The position numbers were made by a program, and so were the translations under genes. 64,000 nucleotides of DNA, from the sequence record MT446421.1; one strand, 5' to 3'. The DNA comes from Escherichia virus TH55. The notes under the pieces are model-generated. The model had not been told where the DNA came from. It saw nothing but the letters and a program-made list of their open reading frames with translations, and searched no databases. Shown here one piece after another: positions 11,789 through 63,189 of the stretch (positions are counted from its first letter, which is position 1; each line of letters starts with the position of its first letter).

Positions 11789-12007
11789 AGTTTCCTCATT
11801 TCAATGGCCCCGAAGGACCATTATACTGTAGGTTTATCGTCTTTATTCTTACGCTTTTTTGATGGGATTTGTTCAGGGCCTTTATTGACAACTGCCCCGG
11901 AAGTGGTACCTGTTGCGATATTAGTTGGGTTTCCACCTGCATCACCGGCAGCCATATCTTCGTTGATAAAATCTTTGAATGTTTTCATAACACCCCCTTT
12001 CCGCTAT

Positions 12008-12199
12008 TTATACAACGAAGATAGCTTTATCACCATTTGCATCAGTCACTTCATAAGTGTCTTCATGATACAACGGAATAATCCAGGTAACACCATCATC
12101 AGCGATAACATGGATTGCTTCTTGGTCTTGCGACACGATTTCATATTCTTCAAAAATCTGGAAGACCGAAATCTTAGAGCCCGTACACATTGCACTCAT
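12008..12199 (-). CDS. hypothetical protein
   Basis: 63-aa acidic ORF. Confidence 0.4.
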   Translation of the reverse strand: MSAMCTGSKISVFQIFEEYEIVSQDQEAIHVIADDGVTWIIPLYHEDTYEVTDANGDKAIFVV

Positions 12200-17317: not shown

Positions 17318-17402
17318 TCATTTTTTCCATAGGCACCATTATATTTTTCTCACAGGTTTAAGATAGGATAATTATATCACTGTATTTTTAGAGCAATTAA
17401 TG

Positions 17403-17906
17403 TTAGTTAATACCTTGGCGTGCTTTCTCTTTAGCTACACATTTATTAATATAGCTCAGACGGTTTTGAGCAGAACGCTGATACATATCGCGATACTCAT
17501 TAGCTTTTGGAGAACCAGCCTCTGCTGCCTGATAAGCTTCCGCGCGCATGATGTTTATCTGCATATTGATGTATGACATACAGACCTGTGAAATCTGGTT
17601 AACAGTATCCAAGTCATTTTGTCGCTTAGTTTCTGCTTCTAATTTAGCGATTACTTCATCATGCTTCGCAGCTTGCTCGCGTTTGTACTCAATTTCTTGT
17701 TGAGCATATTTCGCGCAGTTATTTCCACATTGATTGTTGTCGCGTTTGTAGATAAGTCCAGTACCACCTTTGAAATCAAAGGAACCATTATGCACCTGAC
17801 GGTCTGCAGCAATTCGCGCTTTACCAATCTCACTGGCATTAACTACATCACCCTGGTAAGCACAACCAGATAACAGTATAACAGCTGCGATAGCTAACTT
17901 TTTCAT
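17403..17906 (-). CDS. putative lipoprotein with coiled-coil
   Basis: Trimmed to ATG 17904-17906 (GAGGA SD); MKKLAIAAVILLSGC lipobox; sits where T4 has beta-gt/42. Confidence 0.55.
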   Translation of the reverse strand: MKKLAIAAVILLSGCAYQGDVVNASEIGKARIAADRQVHNGSFDFKGGTGLIYKRDNNQCGNNCAKYAQQEIEYKREQAAKHDEVIAKLEAETKRQNDLDTVNQISQVCMSYINMQINIMRAEAYQAAEAGSPKANEYRDMYQRSAQNRLSYINKCVAKEKARQGIN

Positions 17907-17916
17907 TGTATTTTCC

Positions 17917-18060
17917 TCAATTAAAACATTCATAGCGGGCTTGGAGCCCCAAAAATACCCAACCCAAAATTAAAGTTGGAATCATATGTGGAGTCATTAT
18001 TGCCCAATAGATTGACATACCAAAAAATGCAATCAGTACAATAATTGTAATCATCTTCAT
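17917..18060 (-). CDS. small membrane protein (47 aa)
   Basis: Not in ORF track; ATGA overlap with stop of 18057..18299; hydrophobic. Confidence 0.35.
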   Translation of the reverse strand: MKMITIIVLIAFFGMSIYWAIMTPHMIPTLILGWVFLGLQARYECFN

Positions 18061-18299
18061 TTGGTTTCCTTGATGATAATTACTTGTGCGTTTGATTTAC
18101 GTTCAGCAACGAGTGCCCAGATAAATGCAATAAACCACCCGACCATTGTCCAACCTAACAGGAGGTTAACAAAGAAGATTCCGCAATTACTTTTGGTTCC
18201 TCGCAGTAGCGCGATAATCCACGGCAGAAAATATGCCAGTGCAGCCAGGAAGAAAGAACCAGCACCAAGAACAACAGTACCTGCAATTAATGTTTCCAT
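18057..18299 (-). CDS. small inner-membrane protein, Imm-like (by position and size)
   Basis: 80 aa, two predicted TM helices, directly downstream of gene 43 as T4 imm. Confidence 0.45.
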   Translation of the reverse strand: METLIAGTVVLGAGSFFLAALAYFLPWIIALLRGTKSNCGIFFVNLLLGWTMVGWFIAFIWALVAERKSNAQVIIIKETK

Positions 18300-18339
18300 T
18301 TTAATATCCTTAATTTAATCATCAGTAGTTGATGGAGTA

Positions 18340-50692: not shown

Positions 50693-50981
50693 ATTTTTTC
50701 CAGTCAGAAATCATGTGAATCTCCTGGTCATATGCCAGGAGACTGCGAGTAATAATACCCTTACAAGGTCCAGAAATAAATTCCAGAGTAAAGTAAGGAA
50801 CCTGTTTCATTAATCGGATACTTGGAGCATGACATCTAAAACGAGAGCCCTTAAAGGGCCCTGACATGAATACATATTCTAATGGATAGAAATAAGCATA
50901 TTCAAAATTAACGGTAAGGTCCTCTCTTCGGACCTTACGTGAGAAATAGCAAAACTCAAAAAGTTCTTCATCAGTCATCAT
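50685..50981 (-). CDS. hypothetical protein
   Basis: 98-aa ORF. Confidence 0.45.
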   Translation of the reverse strand: MMTDEELFEFCYFSRKVRREDLTVNFEYAYFYPLEYVFMSGPFKGSRFRCHAPSIRLMKQVPYFTLEFISGPCKGIITRSLLAYDQEIHMISDWKKYV

Positions 50982-51505
50982 TGCATTCCTATCACAAAGA
51001 ACAACGGCAAAGGCTTATCACCTTGACACATAAATTTATTCATCATTACCTGATAAGCTTCATAGAACTTATCCATTGCAGGGAGGCGAATAGGTTCTTC
51101 AATAATGATTAAAAGACGCGTAAAACGCAATCCACGGTACTTATGGAAATTATCTTCATCAAGGAAACTGCGTACAGTATCATAGACAACGAATCCAGGT
51201 CGTTCAACTTGAAGATGTGGTTGTGCCTTAGAAACCCGCTTTATTATATTACAGATTTCTCGTGAGCGATGCGAAGAACTCGACATAACAATCACATCAT
51301 TACCTTTAGAAACCCAATCCGCAGCAAACTGCGCAATAGCACTTGTTTTACCTGTTTGTCTTCCACCATCAAGTCTAAGAGTACCAAACTCTTGCATTCT
51401 TGAAGCGGGTTCATACCAGGTGTATTGGTCTGAATCTAAACGTTCAATGGCGCGTTCAGCGAAGGCGTGCATTAAGGTTAGATAAATGGGAGTTAAAAAT
51501 TTCAT
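50978..51505 (-). CDS. P-loop NTPase
   Basis: 175 aa; Walker A GGRQTGKT, Walker B-like LLIIIEE. Confidence 0.55.
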   Translation of the reverse strand: MKFLTPIYLTLMHAFAERAIERLDSDQYTWYEPASRMQEFGTLRLDGGRQTGKTSAIAQFAADWVSKGNDVIVMSSSSHRSREICNIIKRVSKAQPHLQVERPGFVVYDTVRSFLDEDNFHKYRGLRFTRLLIIIEEPIRLPAMDKFYEAYQVMMNKFMCQGDKPLPLFFVIGMQ

Positions 51506-51666
51506 AGTTGTCTCTTAATTGTGGGGCCATTCCTTGGCACATTAATTCGTCCATGTATCCGTATGTAAACCCTTTACCGCACTTGGGCTCGACCTTATTA
51601 CAGGTAGGGAAAGGTCCATCACTCAGAGGACGCGACGTTCATGAGGAGAGGGCCGGCTTGCCTTTA

Positions 51667-51966
51667 TTAGAAAGAACCAGAACCTTTAATTGTGTTCTGG
51701 CGACCTTTATTTTCTAATTCAGAATGGTCGATTTCGTATGCTTGTGCTACACCAAAGGCCTTTTTAACTTTAGCTAAAGAGCCTTTAGATGTGACAATAT
51801 TAAAAGTATTGCCTTTAGTAAAATCAACCAAATCCACTTGTACACCCTGTTTACCGAGGCTTGCTACAATAGCATCAACATATTGTTGGTCTAAATTGCC
51901 CTGGACTCCGATTTGAAATGCTTTGGGAGCTTTGGCTTCAGTAATAAATTCTTGATAAGTTTTCAT
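51667..51966 (-). CDS. internal protein (IP) with capsid-targeting sequence
   Basis: Trimmed to Met of MKTYQEFITEAK, the T4 IP capsid-targeting N-terminus. Confidence 0.6.
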   Translation of the reverse strand: MKTYQEFITEAKAPKAFQIGVQGNLDQQYVDAIVASLGKQGVQVDLVDFTKGNTFNIVTSKGSLAKVKKAFGVAQAYEIDHSELENKGRQNTIKGSGSF

Positions 51967-52014
51967 TTTATATTCCATTGTTTGGTTAATAAAATCATTA
52001 TACAACCTTTTTAG

Positions 52015-52431
52015 TTAAGCGTACACAGCTTTCCCATAGTATTTGTACCAAGCAGGCTTTTGAGAAATTTTCTCATTCAGTCTAGCTTGACTGATTTCAA
52101 TTGACCAGATTGATGGTTGATAATCATTCTTCCATTCATCAGGAATATCAGTTAAATCTTGGGTAGAAATATCTTTTATGTTAAACCCTCGCTTTAAACA
52201 TTCCGCAATAAGTTCTTGATGCCGGTTTTTAAGGAACAAAAGCTTATCATAAAAGAAGGTGACATGACCAGTCCCTAAAAGGAAAGATGATGGGATTTTA
52301 AAGTCAGAAACCTTTTTACCATTTTGTACATGCTTACGAACAGCACCAAACACGCGAGGAAGCTCACGATATTCAGCCATAAGATGTTGGTCAGCGAGTT
52401 CAGATACCAGGGTTAAGTTAATGCGAGTCAT
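52015..52431 (-). CDS. denV: endonuclease V (pyrimidine-dimer glycosylase) DenV
   Basis: 138 aa; N-terminal [35 protein letters not shown] near-identical to recalled T4 endo V. Confidence 0.9.
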
Positions 52432-52457
52432 GTTTGTTCTCCGTAGTTGATAGGGTC

Positions 52458-52486
52458 ATTATAACCCTATCATTTGGAGATGTACA
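52458..52486 (-). promoter_or_regulatory. early-type promoter upstream of denV
   Basis: -35 TGTACA 52481-52486, 17 bp, -10 TATAAT 52458-52463 in loop of GATAGGGT/ACCCTATC inverted repeat. Confidence 0.55.
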
Positions 52487-52756
52487 TCATTTCTTAGAGT
52501 ATTGACCCATAAGTTTAGCGATATCACCCAATTTCTGATTAAACAAATAATCCACTTCTTTGCCAGATTTATCTACAATTTGCCACTGACCATTTCCTTT
52601 GTTGCCAAAGGTCCAATCACCGACTTTAAATGAAGTTCCATTAACTTTTTTAATAGAAGTAAACTCAAAGCCTTCTTTCTTAGCTAAAAATGCCATGCGG
52701 CTTTCATCTGATTCATTTAATACAGATTCAGCCAAAAATTCTTGATACGTTTTCAT
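52487..52756 (-). CDS. internal protein (IP) with capsid-targeting sequence
   Basis: 89 aa; N-terminal MKTYQEFLAE capsid-targeting motif. Confidence 0.65.
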   Translation of the reverse strand: MKTYQEFLAESVLNESDESRMAFLAKKEGFEFTSIKKVNGTSFKVGDWTFGNKGNGQWQIVDKSGKEVDYLFNQKLGDIAKLMGQYSKK

Positions 52757-52764
52757 ATTTTACC

Positions 52765-53256
52765 TTATTTGTATGCGTCAAAAGTTCCGGTGCGGAAAGT
52801 TTCAATAACTCGTTTAGCCCGGTTCGGAGTCTGGACTTTATACCATCTTGAGTCTGCCAGTTCCTTGGCAGCCGCTTCCCATGATTTAGCCTTCAGCAAT
52901 CGCATACCCTTAGGAAAACCCGCAACACCAGCAACACCCATCTGGAATACCATATTAATGAGTGCACAACGACGAACTTCATCAAGTACATCATAAACAG
53001 GTTTTAAGACAGGATGTCTCAAGATTCCGGCTTTAGCCTTTTCGACCGAACGGTTAAACAGTGTTTCGGCTTCGTGTTGGGTTATACGACCATTACAGAC
53101 GCGACCCATGAGCTTATCGAGCTCGGCGCGAGCAACATCTTTAGATGGGTTCTTAGTTATCAGTTGCCCGATGCCAATGGTCCAATAGCCTTCAGTATCT
53201 TTATACAAATCCAACTTACAACCTTCATCTATGCGTAACATTTCGAATATATTCAT
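52765..53256 (-). CDS. e: lysozyme (endolysin), T4 e-type
   Basis: 163 aa; near-colinear with recalled T4 lysozyme ([12 protein letters not shown]...catalytic E11/D20/T26). Confidence 0.95.
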
Positions 53257-53258
53257 AA

Positions 53259-53278
53259 TACCCCCTTATATAGGGGTA
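53259..53278 (-). promoter_or_regulatory. RBS-sequestering hairpin at lysozyme start
   Basis: Inverted repeat UACCCC/GGGGUA with 8-nt loop; SD AAGGGGG in 3' arm; AATAAATA overlaps 5' arm. Confidence 0.5.
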
Positions 53279-53282
53279 TTTA

Positions 53283-53741
53283 TTATCCGAAAATTTGAGT
53301 CATTACCTTGTACATCGATTTGCCCATCACATACTGCCATTGACTCGGTTTAATCAGAGCAAATGCATCGAACTCTGGAACCGAACTACCATCCGGGAAG
53401 GTATGATAGGCAGAGCATTTACTATGTCTAAACTGCTCATGCTCAACCGGAACCGTGTACAAAAACAGGTGAAGATTTTTGTTATCTGAATAACGGAACT
53501 CACCCAGGTCCTTTAAGAATGCCGGGTCGTATTGGGTAAACCCGGTTTCTTCTTCGGTTTCACGGATAGCCGCTTCAATCGGGGATTCACCAGCTTCAAC
53601 ATGGCCCTTAGGGATGTCCCATTTATGTGCAGGCATACCTGGTTTACGAGAACAAGTCACACGACCCATGAATAACTCTTTATCTTCAGTCATGAAAATA
53701 ATGCCAGCAGATAATTCTTTCACCTTGTTTTTCTTACTCAT
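53283..53741 (-). CDS. nudE: Nudix hydrolase NudE
   Basis: Trimmed to internal ATG; Nudix box GHVEAGESPIEAAIRETEEETG. Confidence 0.8.
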   Translation of the reverse strand: MSKKNKVKELSAGIIFMTEDKELFMGRVTCSRKPGMPAHKWDIPKGHVEAGESPIEAAIRETEEETGFTQYDPAFLKDLGEFRYSDNKNLHLFLYTVPVEHEQFRHSKCSAYHTFPDGSSVPEFDAFALIKPSQWQYVMGKSMYKVMTQIFG

Positions 53742-53970
53742 CGTCACGTTTCCATGATTGGTTAAAAATATCACTCATTAAAAATTCAAGTCTATTTTCC
53801 AATGAAGGGCTTTCACTACTAGAAACTTGAACCATGTAGTCGGAAATAGGTCGGAACATATCCAAGTCAGTTTCTAAATCATCTTTGATTTTCTCTTCTG
53901 ATGTACCTGTATCATAGGAATACAGATAAGAATCACATGACTCTGATTTAATATAAATTGCAATACTCAT
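53734..53970 (-). CDS. hypothetical acidic protein
   Basis: 78-aa ORF. Confidence 0.45.
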   Translation of the reverse strand: MSIAIYIKSESCDSYLYSYDTGTSEEKIKDDLETDLDMFRPISDYMVQVSSSESPSLENRLEFLMSDIFNQSWKRDDE

Positions 53971-62123: not shown

Positions 62124-62161
62124 TATACCTTGTCGGGGTTCCACCTGCAAGGCAAGTGTTC

Positions 62162-62557
62162 TTATCCGCGAGCGAATGCCATTGCAGCGCGTTCGTTAGC
62201 ACGGTCGGTGATGTTCAAGAATTTATCACGAGCGATTTCGATTGGAGCACCAACCCAGTCAGCAGCACCATTACCTGGAGACTGTTTAGGGCGAACCATA
62301 TAAGTTGAAACTTTGGAACCGGCTAGTTTGGCACCAGGTGCCGCGGCATTTTTAACGTCTTTAGCTTTGATGCCAAACCCAGTTACGATACCCCAAGAAA
62401 CGCCATTAACTGGTTTCTTGAACATAACACGGTCACCAATTGAAACACCGGCTTTTTCTGGAGCCACTAAAGAAAATTTACCAGCTTCAGTCAGTACGGA
62501 TTCGGTGATGGTATTGCGATTTAAAAATTCTGCATATGTAAGCATTTTGTTTTCCAT
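62162..62557 (-). CDS. hypothetical protein, possible internal/virion protein
   Basis: 131 aa; N-terminus MLTYAEFLN loosely resembles IP targeting sequence; TATAAATA late motif upstream. Confidence 0.45.
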   Translation of the reverse strand: MENKMLTYAEFLNRNTITESVLTEAGKFSLVAPEKAGVSIGDRVMFKKPVNGVSWGIVTGFGIKAKDVKNAAAPGAKLAGSKVSTYMVRPKQSPGNGAADWVGAPIEIARDKFLNITDRANERAAMAFARG

Positions 62558-62575
62558 TATTAGGGTTGTTGTTAA

Positions 62576-62583
62576 TATTTATA
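62576..62583 (-). promoter_or_regulatory. T4-type late promoter motif TATAAATA
   Basis: Exact TATAAATA on minus strand 19 nt upstream of ATG 62557. Confidence 0.4.
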
Positions 62584-62594
62584 TTCCATAGTAC

Positions 62595-62643
62595 CGGATG
62601 CACCATCCGCTCGGATTTCTCATACTACCGGACGCACCGTCCG
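62595..62643. repeat. two tandem related stem-loops in ORF-free region
   Basis: CGGATG-CAC-CATCCG (62595-62609) and CGGACG-CAC-CGTCCG (62629-62643), each within a ~30-bp repeated unit. Confidence 0.6.
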
Positions 62644-62781
62644 CTCTGGAAAAACTCCGTAAAAGGGTGCGCCGTTTCAGCTGTGATATAAGGGGGCATC
62701 AACAAATCGTAAAGATTTATTAATGCCAGTCCTTAAACAGGGAACTTCAGTCCGACGACTTACCGGTAGCGACCCGGTTTC

Positions 62782-63036: not shown

Positions 63037-63113
63037 TGGTCGGGGTGGTGGGATTCTAACCCACAACCTACGGTTTAGAAGACCGTTGCTCTATACAATT
63101 GAGCTACACCCCG
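63037..63113 (-). tRNA. tRNA-Arg (anticodon UCU)
   Basis: Hand-folded cloverleaf: acceptor CGGGGTG/CACCCCG, anticodon stem ACGGT/ACCGT, loop CTTCTAA, T-arm GTGGG/CCCAC, encoded CCA. Confidence 0.75.
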
Positions 63114-63189
63114 GGTGGCCCCATCCGGACTTGAACCGGAAACCTGCCAGTTATGAGCCGGATGCTCTAACCAATTGAGCTACAGGGCC
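63114..63189 (-). tRNA. tRNA with CAU anticodon (Met or lysidine-type Ile)
   Basis: Hand-folded: acceptor GGCCCTG/TGGGGCC, D-arm GCTC/GAGC, loop CTCATAA, T-arm TCCGG/CCGGA; abuts tRNA-Arg. Confidence 0.7.

Follow-up and report, generated by a model that had tools for sequence, protein, structure and literature searches.

The region around denV in Escherichia virus TH55 (sequence record MT446421.1) carries two genes for small internal head proteins of the T4 kind, one on each side of denV. They were studied in a stretch of 64,000 nucleotides from that record, referred to here as the window. The two genes, IPa (51667-51966, minus strand, 99 aa) and IPb (52487-52756, minus strand, 89 aa), very probably belong to the T-even internal protein (IP) system, in which they are exchangeable cassettes whose products would be injected with the DNA and would probably inhibit host defences, and a third gene, c3, is probably a further member. 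Positions 51400-53300 of the window show 100% identity to Escherichia phage UPEC07 (MW250787.1; Straboviridae, Tevenvirinae, Gaprivervirus) and match other gapriverviruses, VR7 and SP18 among them, at 94-98%. All genes in this region lie on the minus strand, and the order of transcription is nudE, e, IPb, denV, IPa, vs.8.

The initial annotation described two genes starting with MKTYQEF on either side of denV, and the minus-strand open reading frames (ORFs) at 51667-51966 and 52487-52756 bear this out. IPa starts with MKTYQEFITEAKAP and encodes the N-terminus MKTYQEFITE (tag-coding part 51937-51966, minus strand), while IPb starts with MKTYQEFLAESVLNE and encodes MKTYQEFLAE (tag-coding part 52727-52756). 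T4 IPII and IPIII (NC_000866) both begin MKTYQEFIAE. The tag had been equated with that of T4 IPI, IPII and IPIII; this is right for IPII and IPIII and slightly loose for IPI, whose N-terminus, MKTFKEFTSTTTPVSTITE, is similar to that tag and not identical. In a six-frame translation of the window MKTYQEF occurs twice, against an expectation of 1.9e-5. According to Mullaney & Black as cited in PMC9026906, the first ten residues of IPIII are enough for incorporation into the head, and within this capsid-targeting sequence (CTS) residues 4 and 7 are used for targeting and residues 8 and 10 for processing. IPa and IPb both agree with the T4 tag at Tyr4, Phe7, Ile/Leu8 and Glu10. Across the IPb family positions 4, 7 and 10 are invariant and position 8 is I, L or M; across the Ip7 family, to which IPa belongs, F7, I8 and E10 are invariant and position 4 is Tyr except for a Phe in one member. 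Past residue 11, BLASTP finds no similarity between IPa and IPb, or between either of them and any T4 IP. Structure predictions were also run and the predicted folds differ, in line with the claim that the two bodies are unrelated.

The two genes sit in the e-denV-vs.8 interval, where T4 has ipII and ipIII. The lysozyme gene e lies at 52765-53256 (minus strand; Pfam Phage_lysozyme, E 7e-13), and denV, which encodes a pyrimidine-dimer glycosylase, lies at 52015-52431 (minus strand; Pfam PF03013 Pyr_excise, E 9e-16; PHROG 1183, E 8e-62) and is the conserved gene that separates the two IP slots. The T4-type identity proposed for both proteins is upheld by the CTS residues, the PHROG matches, this locus and the cognate gp21, gp22 and gp23, which all agree.

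IPa matches PHROG 2667, “internal head protein” (E 8e-43), and is a full-length homolog, with the same CTS, of Ip7 from T2 and its relatives. It is 97% identical to VR7 Ip7, which the VR7 record describes as similar to the T2 internal head protein Ip7, and about 49% identical to the T2 protein; Ip7 homologs are found in 283 phage records. In T2, CC31 and others Ip7 is encoded at the ipI locus beside 57B, whereas IPa sits downstream of denV, and IPa also differs from its relatives in that its leader and CTS DNA come from an ip10-type cassette. The UPEC07 annotation and the ORF list begin IPa further upstream (ATG 51978 / TTG 52005), but its start is likely 51966, because the VR7 homolog and the aligned family begin at the methionine of MKTY or MLTY. 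Cleavage after E10 (ITE/A) would leave a predicted mature IPa of 89 aa and 9.5 kDa with an isoelectric point (pI) of 9.3. The AlphaFold model, with a mean predicted local distance difference test score (pLDDT) of 75, is a ferredoxin-like beta-alpha-beta-beta-alpha-beta fold with a C-terminal helix. Some Ip7 homologs from metagenomes (P0020, P0025, P0028-P0030) carry an N-terminal extension (MAPFNLNLTILGYK...) ahead of MKTYKEF. This extension is probably an artefact of the gene caller choosing an in-frame upstream codon, as with the TTG and ATG calls for IPa; a genuine extension would bury the targeting tag.

The UPEC07 record labels IPb “hypothetical”. Its PHROG match is 8765, “internal virion protein” (E 5e-37), a name that RefSeq records also give it. 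Homologs occur in 42 phage records and, where annotated, mostly lie directly downstream of e. Among gapriverviruses only six records have IPb (five identical full-length copies and one cut at the record end), the next best match beyond these identical copies is 78%, and a metagenome-scale search added only 11 further clusters. An alignment of 12 sequences has 41 invariant columns, including M1, K2, T3, Y4, F7, E10, L13 and E15, and the second L-x-E site, LNE at residues 13-15, is invariant. The predicted mature protein is 8.9 kDa with a pI of 9.2 if cut after Glu10, and 8.4 kDa if cut at LNE (74-79 aa, pI 9.2-9.4). The AlphaFold (AF2) model has a pLDDT of 81 and shows a helix, five strands and a helix (alpha-beta5-alpha); a structural search with it gave no informative match. 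As far as a verbal description allows (PMC3012670), it resembles T4 IPI*, with beta strands between N- and C-terminal helices. These confidently folded models, at pLDDT 81 and 75, argue for IPb and IPa as real proteins. The IPb gene starts 8 nt past the e stop codon and its ribosome-binding site (RBS), TAAGGT, overlaps that stop; IPb is therefore probably read from e transcripts.

The proposed pathway is that of T4. The N-terminal ten-residue CTS of each protein would bind the gp22 scaffolding core of the prohead, and the prohead protease gp21 would cut after Glu10, giving ITE/A in Ip7 and LAE/S, or possibly LNE/S, in IPb. The small basic mature proteins (8-9.5 kDa) would then remain in the head with the DNA and be injected into the next host, where they would most likely be first-response inhibitors of DNA-targeting defence enzymes, like T4 Ip1, Ip2 and Ip3. 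The head genes this needs are annotated in UPEC07 outside the window (record 67.9-76.3 kb) and form a full head-core module of the T4 type: the portal, gp67, gp68, the protease gp21, the scaffold gp22 and gp23, along with two genes annotated as gp24-type vertex proteins. The maturation site of UPEC07 gp23, FLTE/AEIGGDHGY, is that of T4, and the predicted mature IPa and IPb are close to T4 IPI* (8.0 kDa, pI 9.0) and IPII* (9.8 kDa, pI 9.6). From T4 biology we infer packaging, cleavage and injection of IPa and IPb. A depletion of L/I-x-E sites from the protein bodies was considered as a sign of adaptation to gp21, and was dropped when shuffled sequences gave no significance.

The e-to-vs.8 interval was scanned for tag-bearing ORFs in six gapriverviruses and T4. 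In the order of transcription, UPEC07 has e-[IPb]-denV-[Ip7]; VR7 has e-denV-[Ip10][ORF127c][Ip7]; MN01 has e-[Ip2 homolog]-denV-[Ip7]; phage 212 has e-[IPb]-denV-[127c][Ip7]; CJ20 has e-[Ip2 homolog]-denV-[Ip10][127c][Ip7]; vB_YenM_P8 has e-denV-[Ip7]; and T4 has e-[Ip3][Ip2]-denV. The six gapriverviruses thus show six different combinations in two slots, and the slot between e and denV holds IPb, an Ip2 homolog or nothing.

The alignments place the junctions of these cassettes inside the tag. By blastn, window positions 51300-51970 align to VR7 vs.8 and ip7, and positions 51937-52484 align to the start of VR7 ip10 and denV. The two alignments overlap at IPa by 34 bp, which is the tag-coding sequence, and this puts a crossover junction in the CTS-coding DNA of IPa at 51937-51970 (minus strand). 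The first 30 nt of IPa are those of VR7 ip10, while VR7 ip7 differs and starts ATGTTA (MLTY), and 588 bp present in VR7 between the ip10 tag and the ip7 body are missing from UPEC07. Judged by these alignments, UPEC07 IPa is an ip10 leader and tag joined to an ip7 body, the product of a crossover within the tag. On the other side of denV, the IPb cassette is a 287-bp insertion relative to VR7 (52485-52771, minus strand) between the e stop codon and the denV promoter, and VR7 has 6 bp in its place. UPEC07 and MN01 are identical through the 3' end of e and the first ~24 nt of the CTS, and diverge from there until the denV RBS. IPb therefore occupies the same cassette position as a close homolog of Ip2, a proven inhibitor, with its 5' junction inside the CTS, and this comparison places it as an allelic alternative to Ip2. 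Modular exchange of T-even IP genes was proposed earlier (Repoila et al. 1994, as cited in PMC3012670), and IPs are described as diverse with the CTS alone conserved (PMC3012670). In this model the conserved 30 bp that code for the tag are the 5' crossover site, so that one genus carries varying combinations in the same two slots.

The repertoire extends beyond this interval. Just past the window end, the ipI locus of UPEC07 (record 104672-105847, from 57B to trna.4) has four tandem tag-bearing ORFs, which begin MNIKTYNEFLAE (110 aa), MKTFNEFFNE (90 aa), MKTYQTFITE (80 aa) and MKTYQEFINE (84 aa). Three of the four fall in PHROGs named as internal head or virion proteins. The 110-aa ORF has two residues ahead of its tag and shares with IPb the extended leader EFLAESxxNE, and IPb also matches its PHROG, 3966 (E 1.5e-10); the shared leader suggests a 15-residue propeptide variant. 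UPEC07 thus has at least six canonical IP genes, plus c3.

Among the closest known counterparts are T4 IPII and IPIII, which share with IPa and IPb the ten-residue CTS, the E10 cleavage site, the e-to-vs.8 interval and small basic mature forms. T4 Ip2 and Ip3 differ in having demonstrated GmrSD targets, and the IPa and IPb bodies show no sequence similarity to them. T4 also differs from gapriverviruses, which have no known pathway to glucosylated hydroxymethylcytosine (hmC). T4 IPI is another close counterpart; it is injected and processed by gp21 to IPI*, an 8-kDa mature GmrSD inhibitor with a nuclear magnetic resonance structure. The Dar proteins of phage P1 (DarA, DarB, Hdf) likewise lie inside the head, are injected with the DNA and protect it from restriction. 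They differ in being large and unrelated, in following another incorporation pathway, in having no MKTYQEF tag and in acting against type I, not type IV, restriction.

The initial annotation took divergent IP bodies as candidate inhibitors of host defences. This is the published view (PMC3012670), and it has since gained weight: T4 Ip1, Ip2 and Ip3 have each been found to block a different GmrSD type IV enzyme, with no cross-protection (PMC12373910). IPIII is needed to infect ECOR17, and a tagless version works when the host produces it. To judge by their position and architecture, IPb, Ip7 and c3 would most likely be additional inhibitors of the injected kind, and their anti-defence activity is proposed by analogy only.

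Several results weigh against this reading. Genes ip4-10, including ip7, were tried against a panel of GmrSD variants, and an apparent interaction of ip7 with CLS_011 was not reproducible. The bodies have no sequence similarity or detectable structural similarity to Ip1-3; sequence profiles from the PDB gave no matches, and in Pfam IPa, IPb and c3 all stayed below threshold. Gaprivervirus is reported to lack the genes for dCMP hydroxymethylase and glucosyltransferase. The L/I-x-E sites of the proteins are confined to their leaders, but not significantly so in composition-preserving shuffles (P about 0.35-0.47), where the probability of having no such site was 0.67-0.96 per protein and 0.35 for all four. 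The searched literature held no virion proteomics or N-terminal sequencing for IPa, IPb, c3, UPEC07 or VR7. For c3, there is no Pfam or PHROG match, and position 10 is Arg, not Glu. Finally, no exact copy of the late-promoter motif TATAAATA lies within 90 nt upstream of IPa or IPb. This absence is not diagnostic, because T4 ipII and ipIII likewise have no exact copy directly upstream, the two perfect sites of that region being upstream of e.

The strongest alternative, which we hold as possible though doubtful, is that the proteins are injected inhibitors of defences other than GmrSD, such as other nucleases, abortive-infection sensors, or enzymes that read a possible modification of gaprivervirus DNA. 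The known hmC and glucosylation genes are lacking, so the glucosyl-hmC substrate of classical GmrSD may be absent. In place of T4 gene 42 (dCMP hydroxymethylase) and beta-gt, the window has only imm and two hypothetical ORFs in the stretch from gene 43 to uvsX (~17400-18300, minus strand), and the 176-aa one of these (17403-17933) has no Pfam family. The genus is nonetheless reported to retain dCTPase, denA, denB and alc, and its DNA may contain a base not yet discovered. This combination fits the alternative, as do the dissimilarity of the IPa and IPb bodies to Ip1-3 and the negative result for Ip7 against GmrSD variants. Against it, published tests have covered only few GmrSD subtypes, and in sibling gapriverviruses that slot holds a close homolog of Ip2, so that GmrSD/BrxU-type enzymes evidently matter to the genus. 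Although it lacks the hmC-glucose pathway, the genus keeps at least six canonical CTS genes and c3. The wider form of this idea, in which IPb, Ip7 and c3 act on defences not yet linked to IPs (non-GmrSD nucleases, or enzymes reading the DNA chemistry of the genus) and c3 founds a new IP family whose propeptide is long like that of IPI, is offered tentatively.

A second alternative is that the proteins are packaged but have a structural or physical role, such as charge neutralisation, DNA or RNA binding in the head or core assembly, with no specific host target. This seems unlikely. It leaves unexplained why unrelated folds occupy one slot and why the genes are present or absent among near-identical phages. 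Replacement by Ip2, a demonstrated enzyme inhibitor, as an allele also weighs against it, and specific targets are now known for all three T4 IPs. The ferredoxin-like fold of the IPa model is too common to be diagnostic.

The initial annotation also named a third candidate with a late motif upstream, and this gene is real. The annotated c3 ORF spans 62162-62557 (minus strand), and its probable start is 62545, with a GGA-type RBS, which gives a protein of 127 aa at 62162-62545 that begins MLTYAEFLN (MLTYAEFLNRNTITESVLTEAGK...) and whose leader reads MLTYAEFLNRNTITE/SVLTE/AGK.... The late-promoter motif TATAAATA lies at 62576-62583 (minus strand), 30 nt upstream of the start codon, and is one of four exact copies in the 64-kb window. 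In its putative CTS (MLTYAEFLNR) Tyr4, Phe7 and Leu8 are kept; because position 10 is Arg, cleavage at residue 10 is not expected. Other L/I-x-E sites follow, ITE at residues 13-15 and LTE at 18-20, and the predicted mature forms have 107-112 aa and a pI of 10.1-10.3. T4 IPI is alike in having a 19-residue propeptide that ends in ITE.

Only 15 phage records contain c3, and all of these copies are at least 99% identical. A word-indexed homolog search returned only a 98%-identical protein, but two distant homologs of the body came out of an exhaustive phmmer search of 1.8 billion representatives, with identities of 38-47%: P0035 (MYTFKEFLVE...LITEA) and P0036 (MKSFKEFMLSE). Both have CTS-like N-termini, their linkers differ completely, and late motifs with one mismatch lie upstream of both genes. 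The metagenomic contig of P0035 carries the T4-family genes Phage_30_3, Phage_T4_Y06R and Phage_T4_Y16K, and the short contig of P0036 has no diagnostic family match. The gene adjoins the tRNA genes, outside the e-denV-vs.8 interval, and behaves as a present/absent cassette: CJ20 has 148 bp in place of the whole cassette 62161-62666, promoter included. The tag is kept across this divergence and VR7 Ip7 also starts MLTY, which makes c3 a plausible addition to the IPs. It is probably one that has gone unrecognised, with a late promoter of its own and a longer propeptide that resembles the one of IPI.

It is improbable that one or more of the ORFs, c3 being the likeliest, is an ordinary cytoplasmic late protein that is not packaged and whose tag is a relic of recombination or a coincidence: the variant leader of c3 (Leu2/Ala5, Arg at position 10), its want of a PHROG or Pfam family, its very narrow distribution and the possibility that translation begins at 62557 instead, which would hide the tag inside the protein, all fit this, but the two homologs keep an M-x-[TS]-[YF]-x-E-F start despite wholly different linkers, the MLTY start recurs in VR7 Ip7, the ITE at residues 13-15 parallels the IPI propeptide, the late promoter is perfect, and the tags of IPa and IPb are invariant, or nearly so, throughout the two families.

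The neighbouring tRNA genes at 63037-63189 (minus strand) are just two (Arg-TCT, Met-CAT), compared with eight in T4, and the sibling SP18 has three (Arg, Asn, Met).

At the ends of the denV region lie nudE (53283-53774, minus strand) and vs.8 (50978-51505, minus strand, 175 aa; PHROG 1488, of unknown function). UPEC07 labels 50978-51505 “IpIII internal head protein”. This label was rejected, as the product has no CTS and is Vs.8 in VR7 and T4, and the name is a probable mis-annotation. The product has a P-loop-like motif, GRQTGKTS, and a weak match to terminase-ATPase profiles. denV has its own sigma-70-like promoter at 52458-52486 (minus strand; TGTACA-17-TATAAT), with the -10 hexamer inside the inverted repeat ATAGGGTTATAATGACCCTAT. 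A GC-rich hairpin, CCCCTATATAAGGGG, lies upstream of e at 53262-53276 and overlaps the RBS region; it recalls the translational hairpin described for T4 e.

A homolog of gp61.1 (c4; 11821-11988, minus strand, 55 aa), downstream of the primase gene 61, starts MKTFKDFINE and has an exact TATAAATA at 12005-12012 (minus strand) and a strong RBS just upstream. It was considered as a fourth IP and rejected, since its body is homologous to the N-terminal arm of gp23 and is not an independent payload: over 37 aa it shares 51% identity with residues 57-93 of gp23, whose maturation site FLTE/AEIGG lines up exactly with Glu10 of the homolog. Homologs occur in 1478 phage records. T4 61.1 has the same similarity to gp23, and no TATAAATA appears in the 60 nt read upstream of it. 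From this alignment the gp61.1 homolog looks like a free-standing copy of the gp23 cleavage site and N-terminal arm, and it could be a packaged peptide or a decoy for the protease or for assembly.

The system itself is well known, both main genes are already catalogued (as Ip7 and PHROG 8765), and nothing here is new in kind. What is new is modest: the junctions internal to the tag, IPb and Ip2 as allelic alternatives, c3 as a probable member that had gone unrecognised, and the matter of IP targets in a genus without a known hmC pathway. Of all phage proteins, the internal ones reach the host cytoplasm first. The three IPs of T4 are highly specific restriction inhibitors, and at least seven further named IPs are still orphans. 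The near-identical gapriverviruses are a natural experiment on this point, having IPb, Ip2 or nothing before denV, one to three cassettes after it, and c3 present or absent, and host-range differences among these cassette variants could map orphan IPs to their targets. The junctions in tag-coding DNA show directly how the conserved tag is also the place where payloads are exchanged by recombination.

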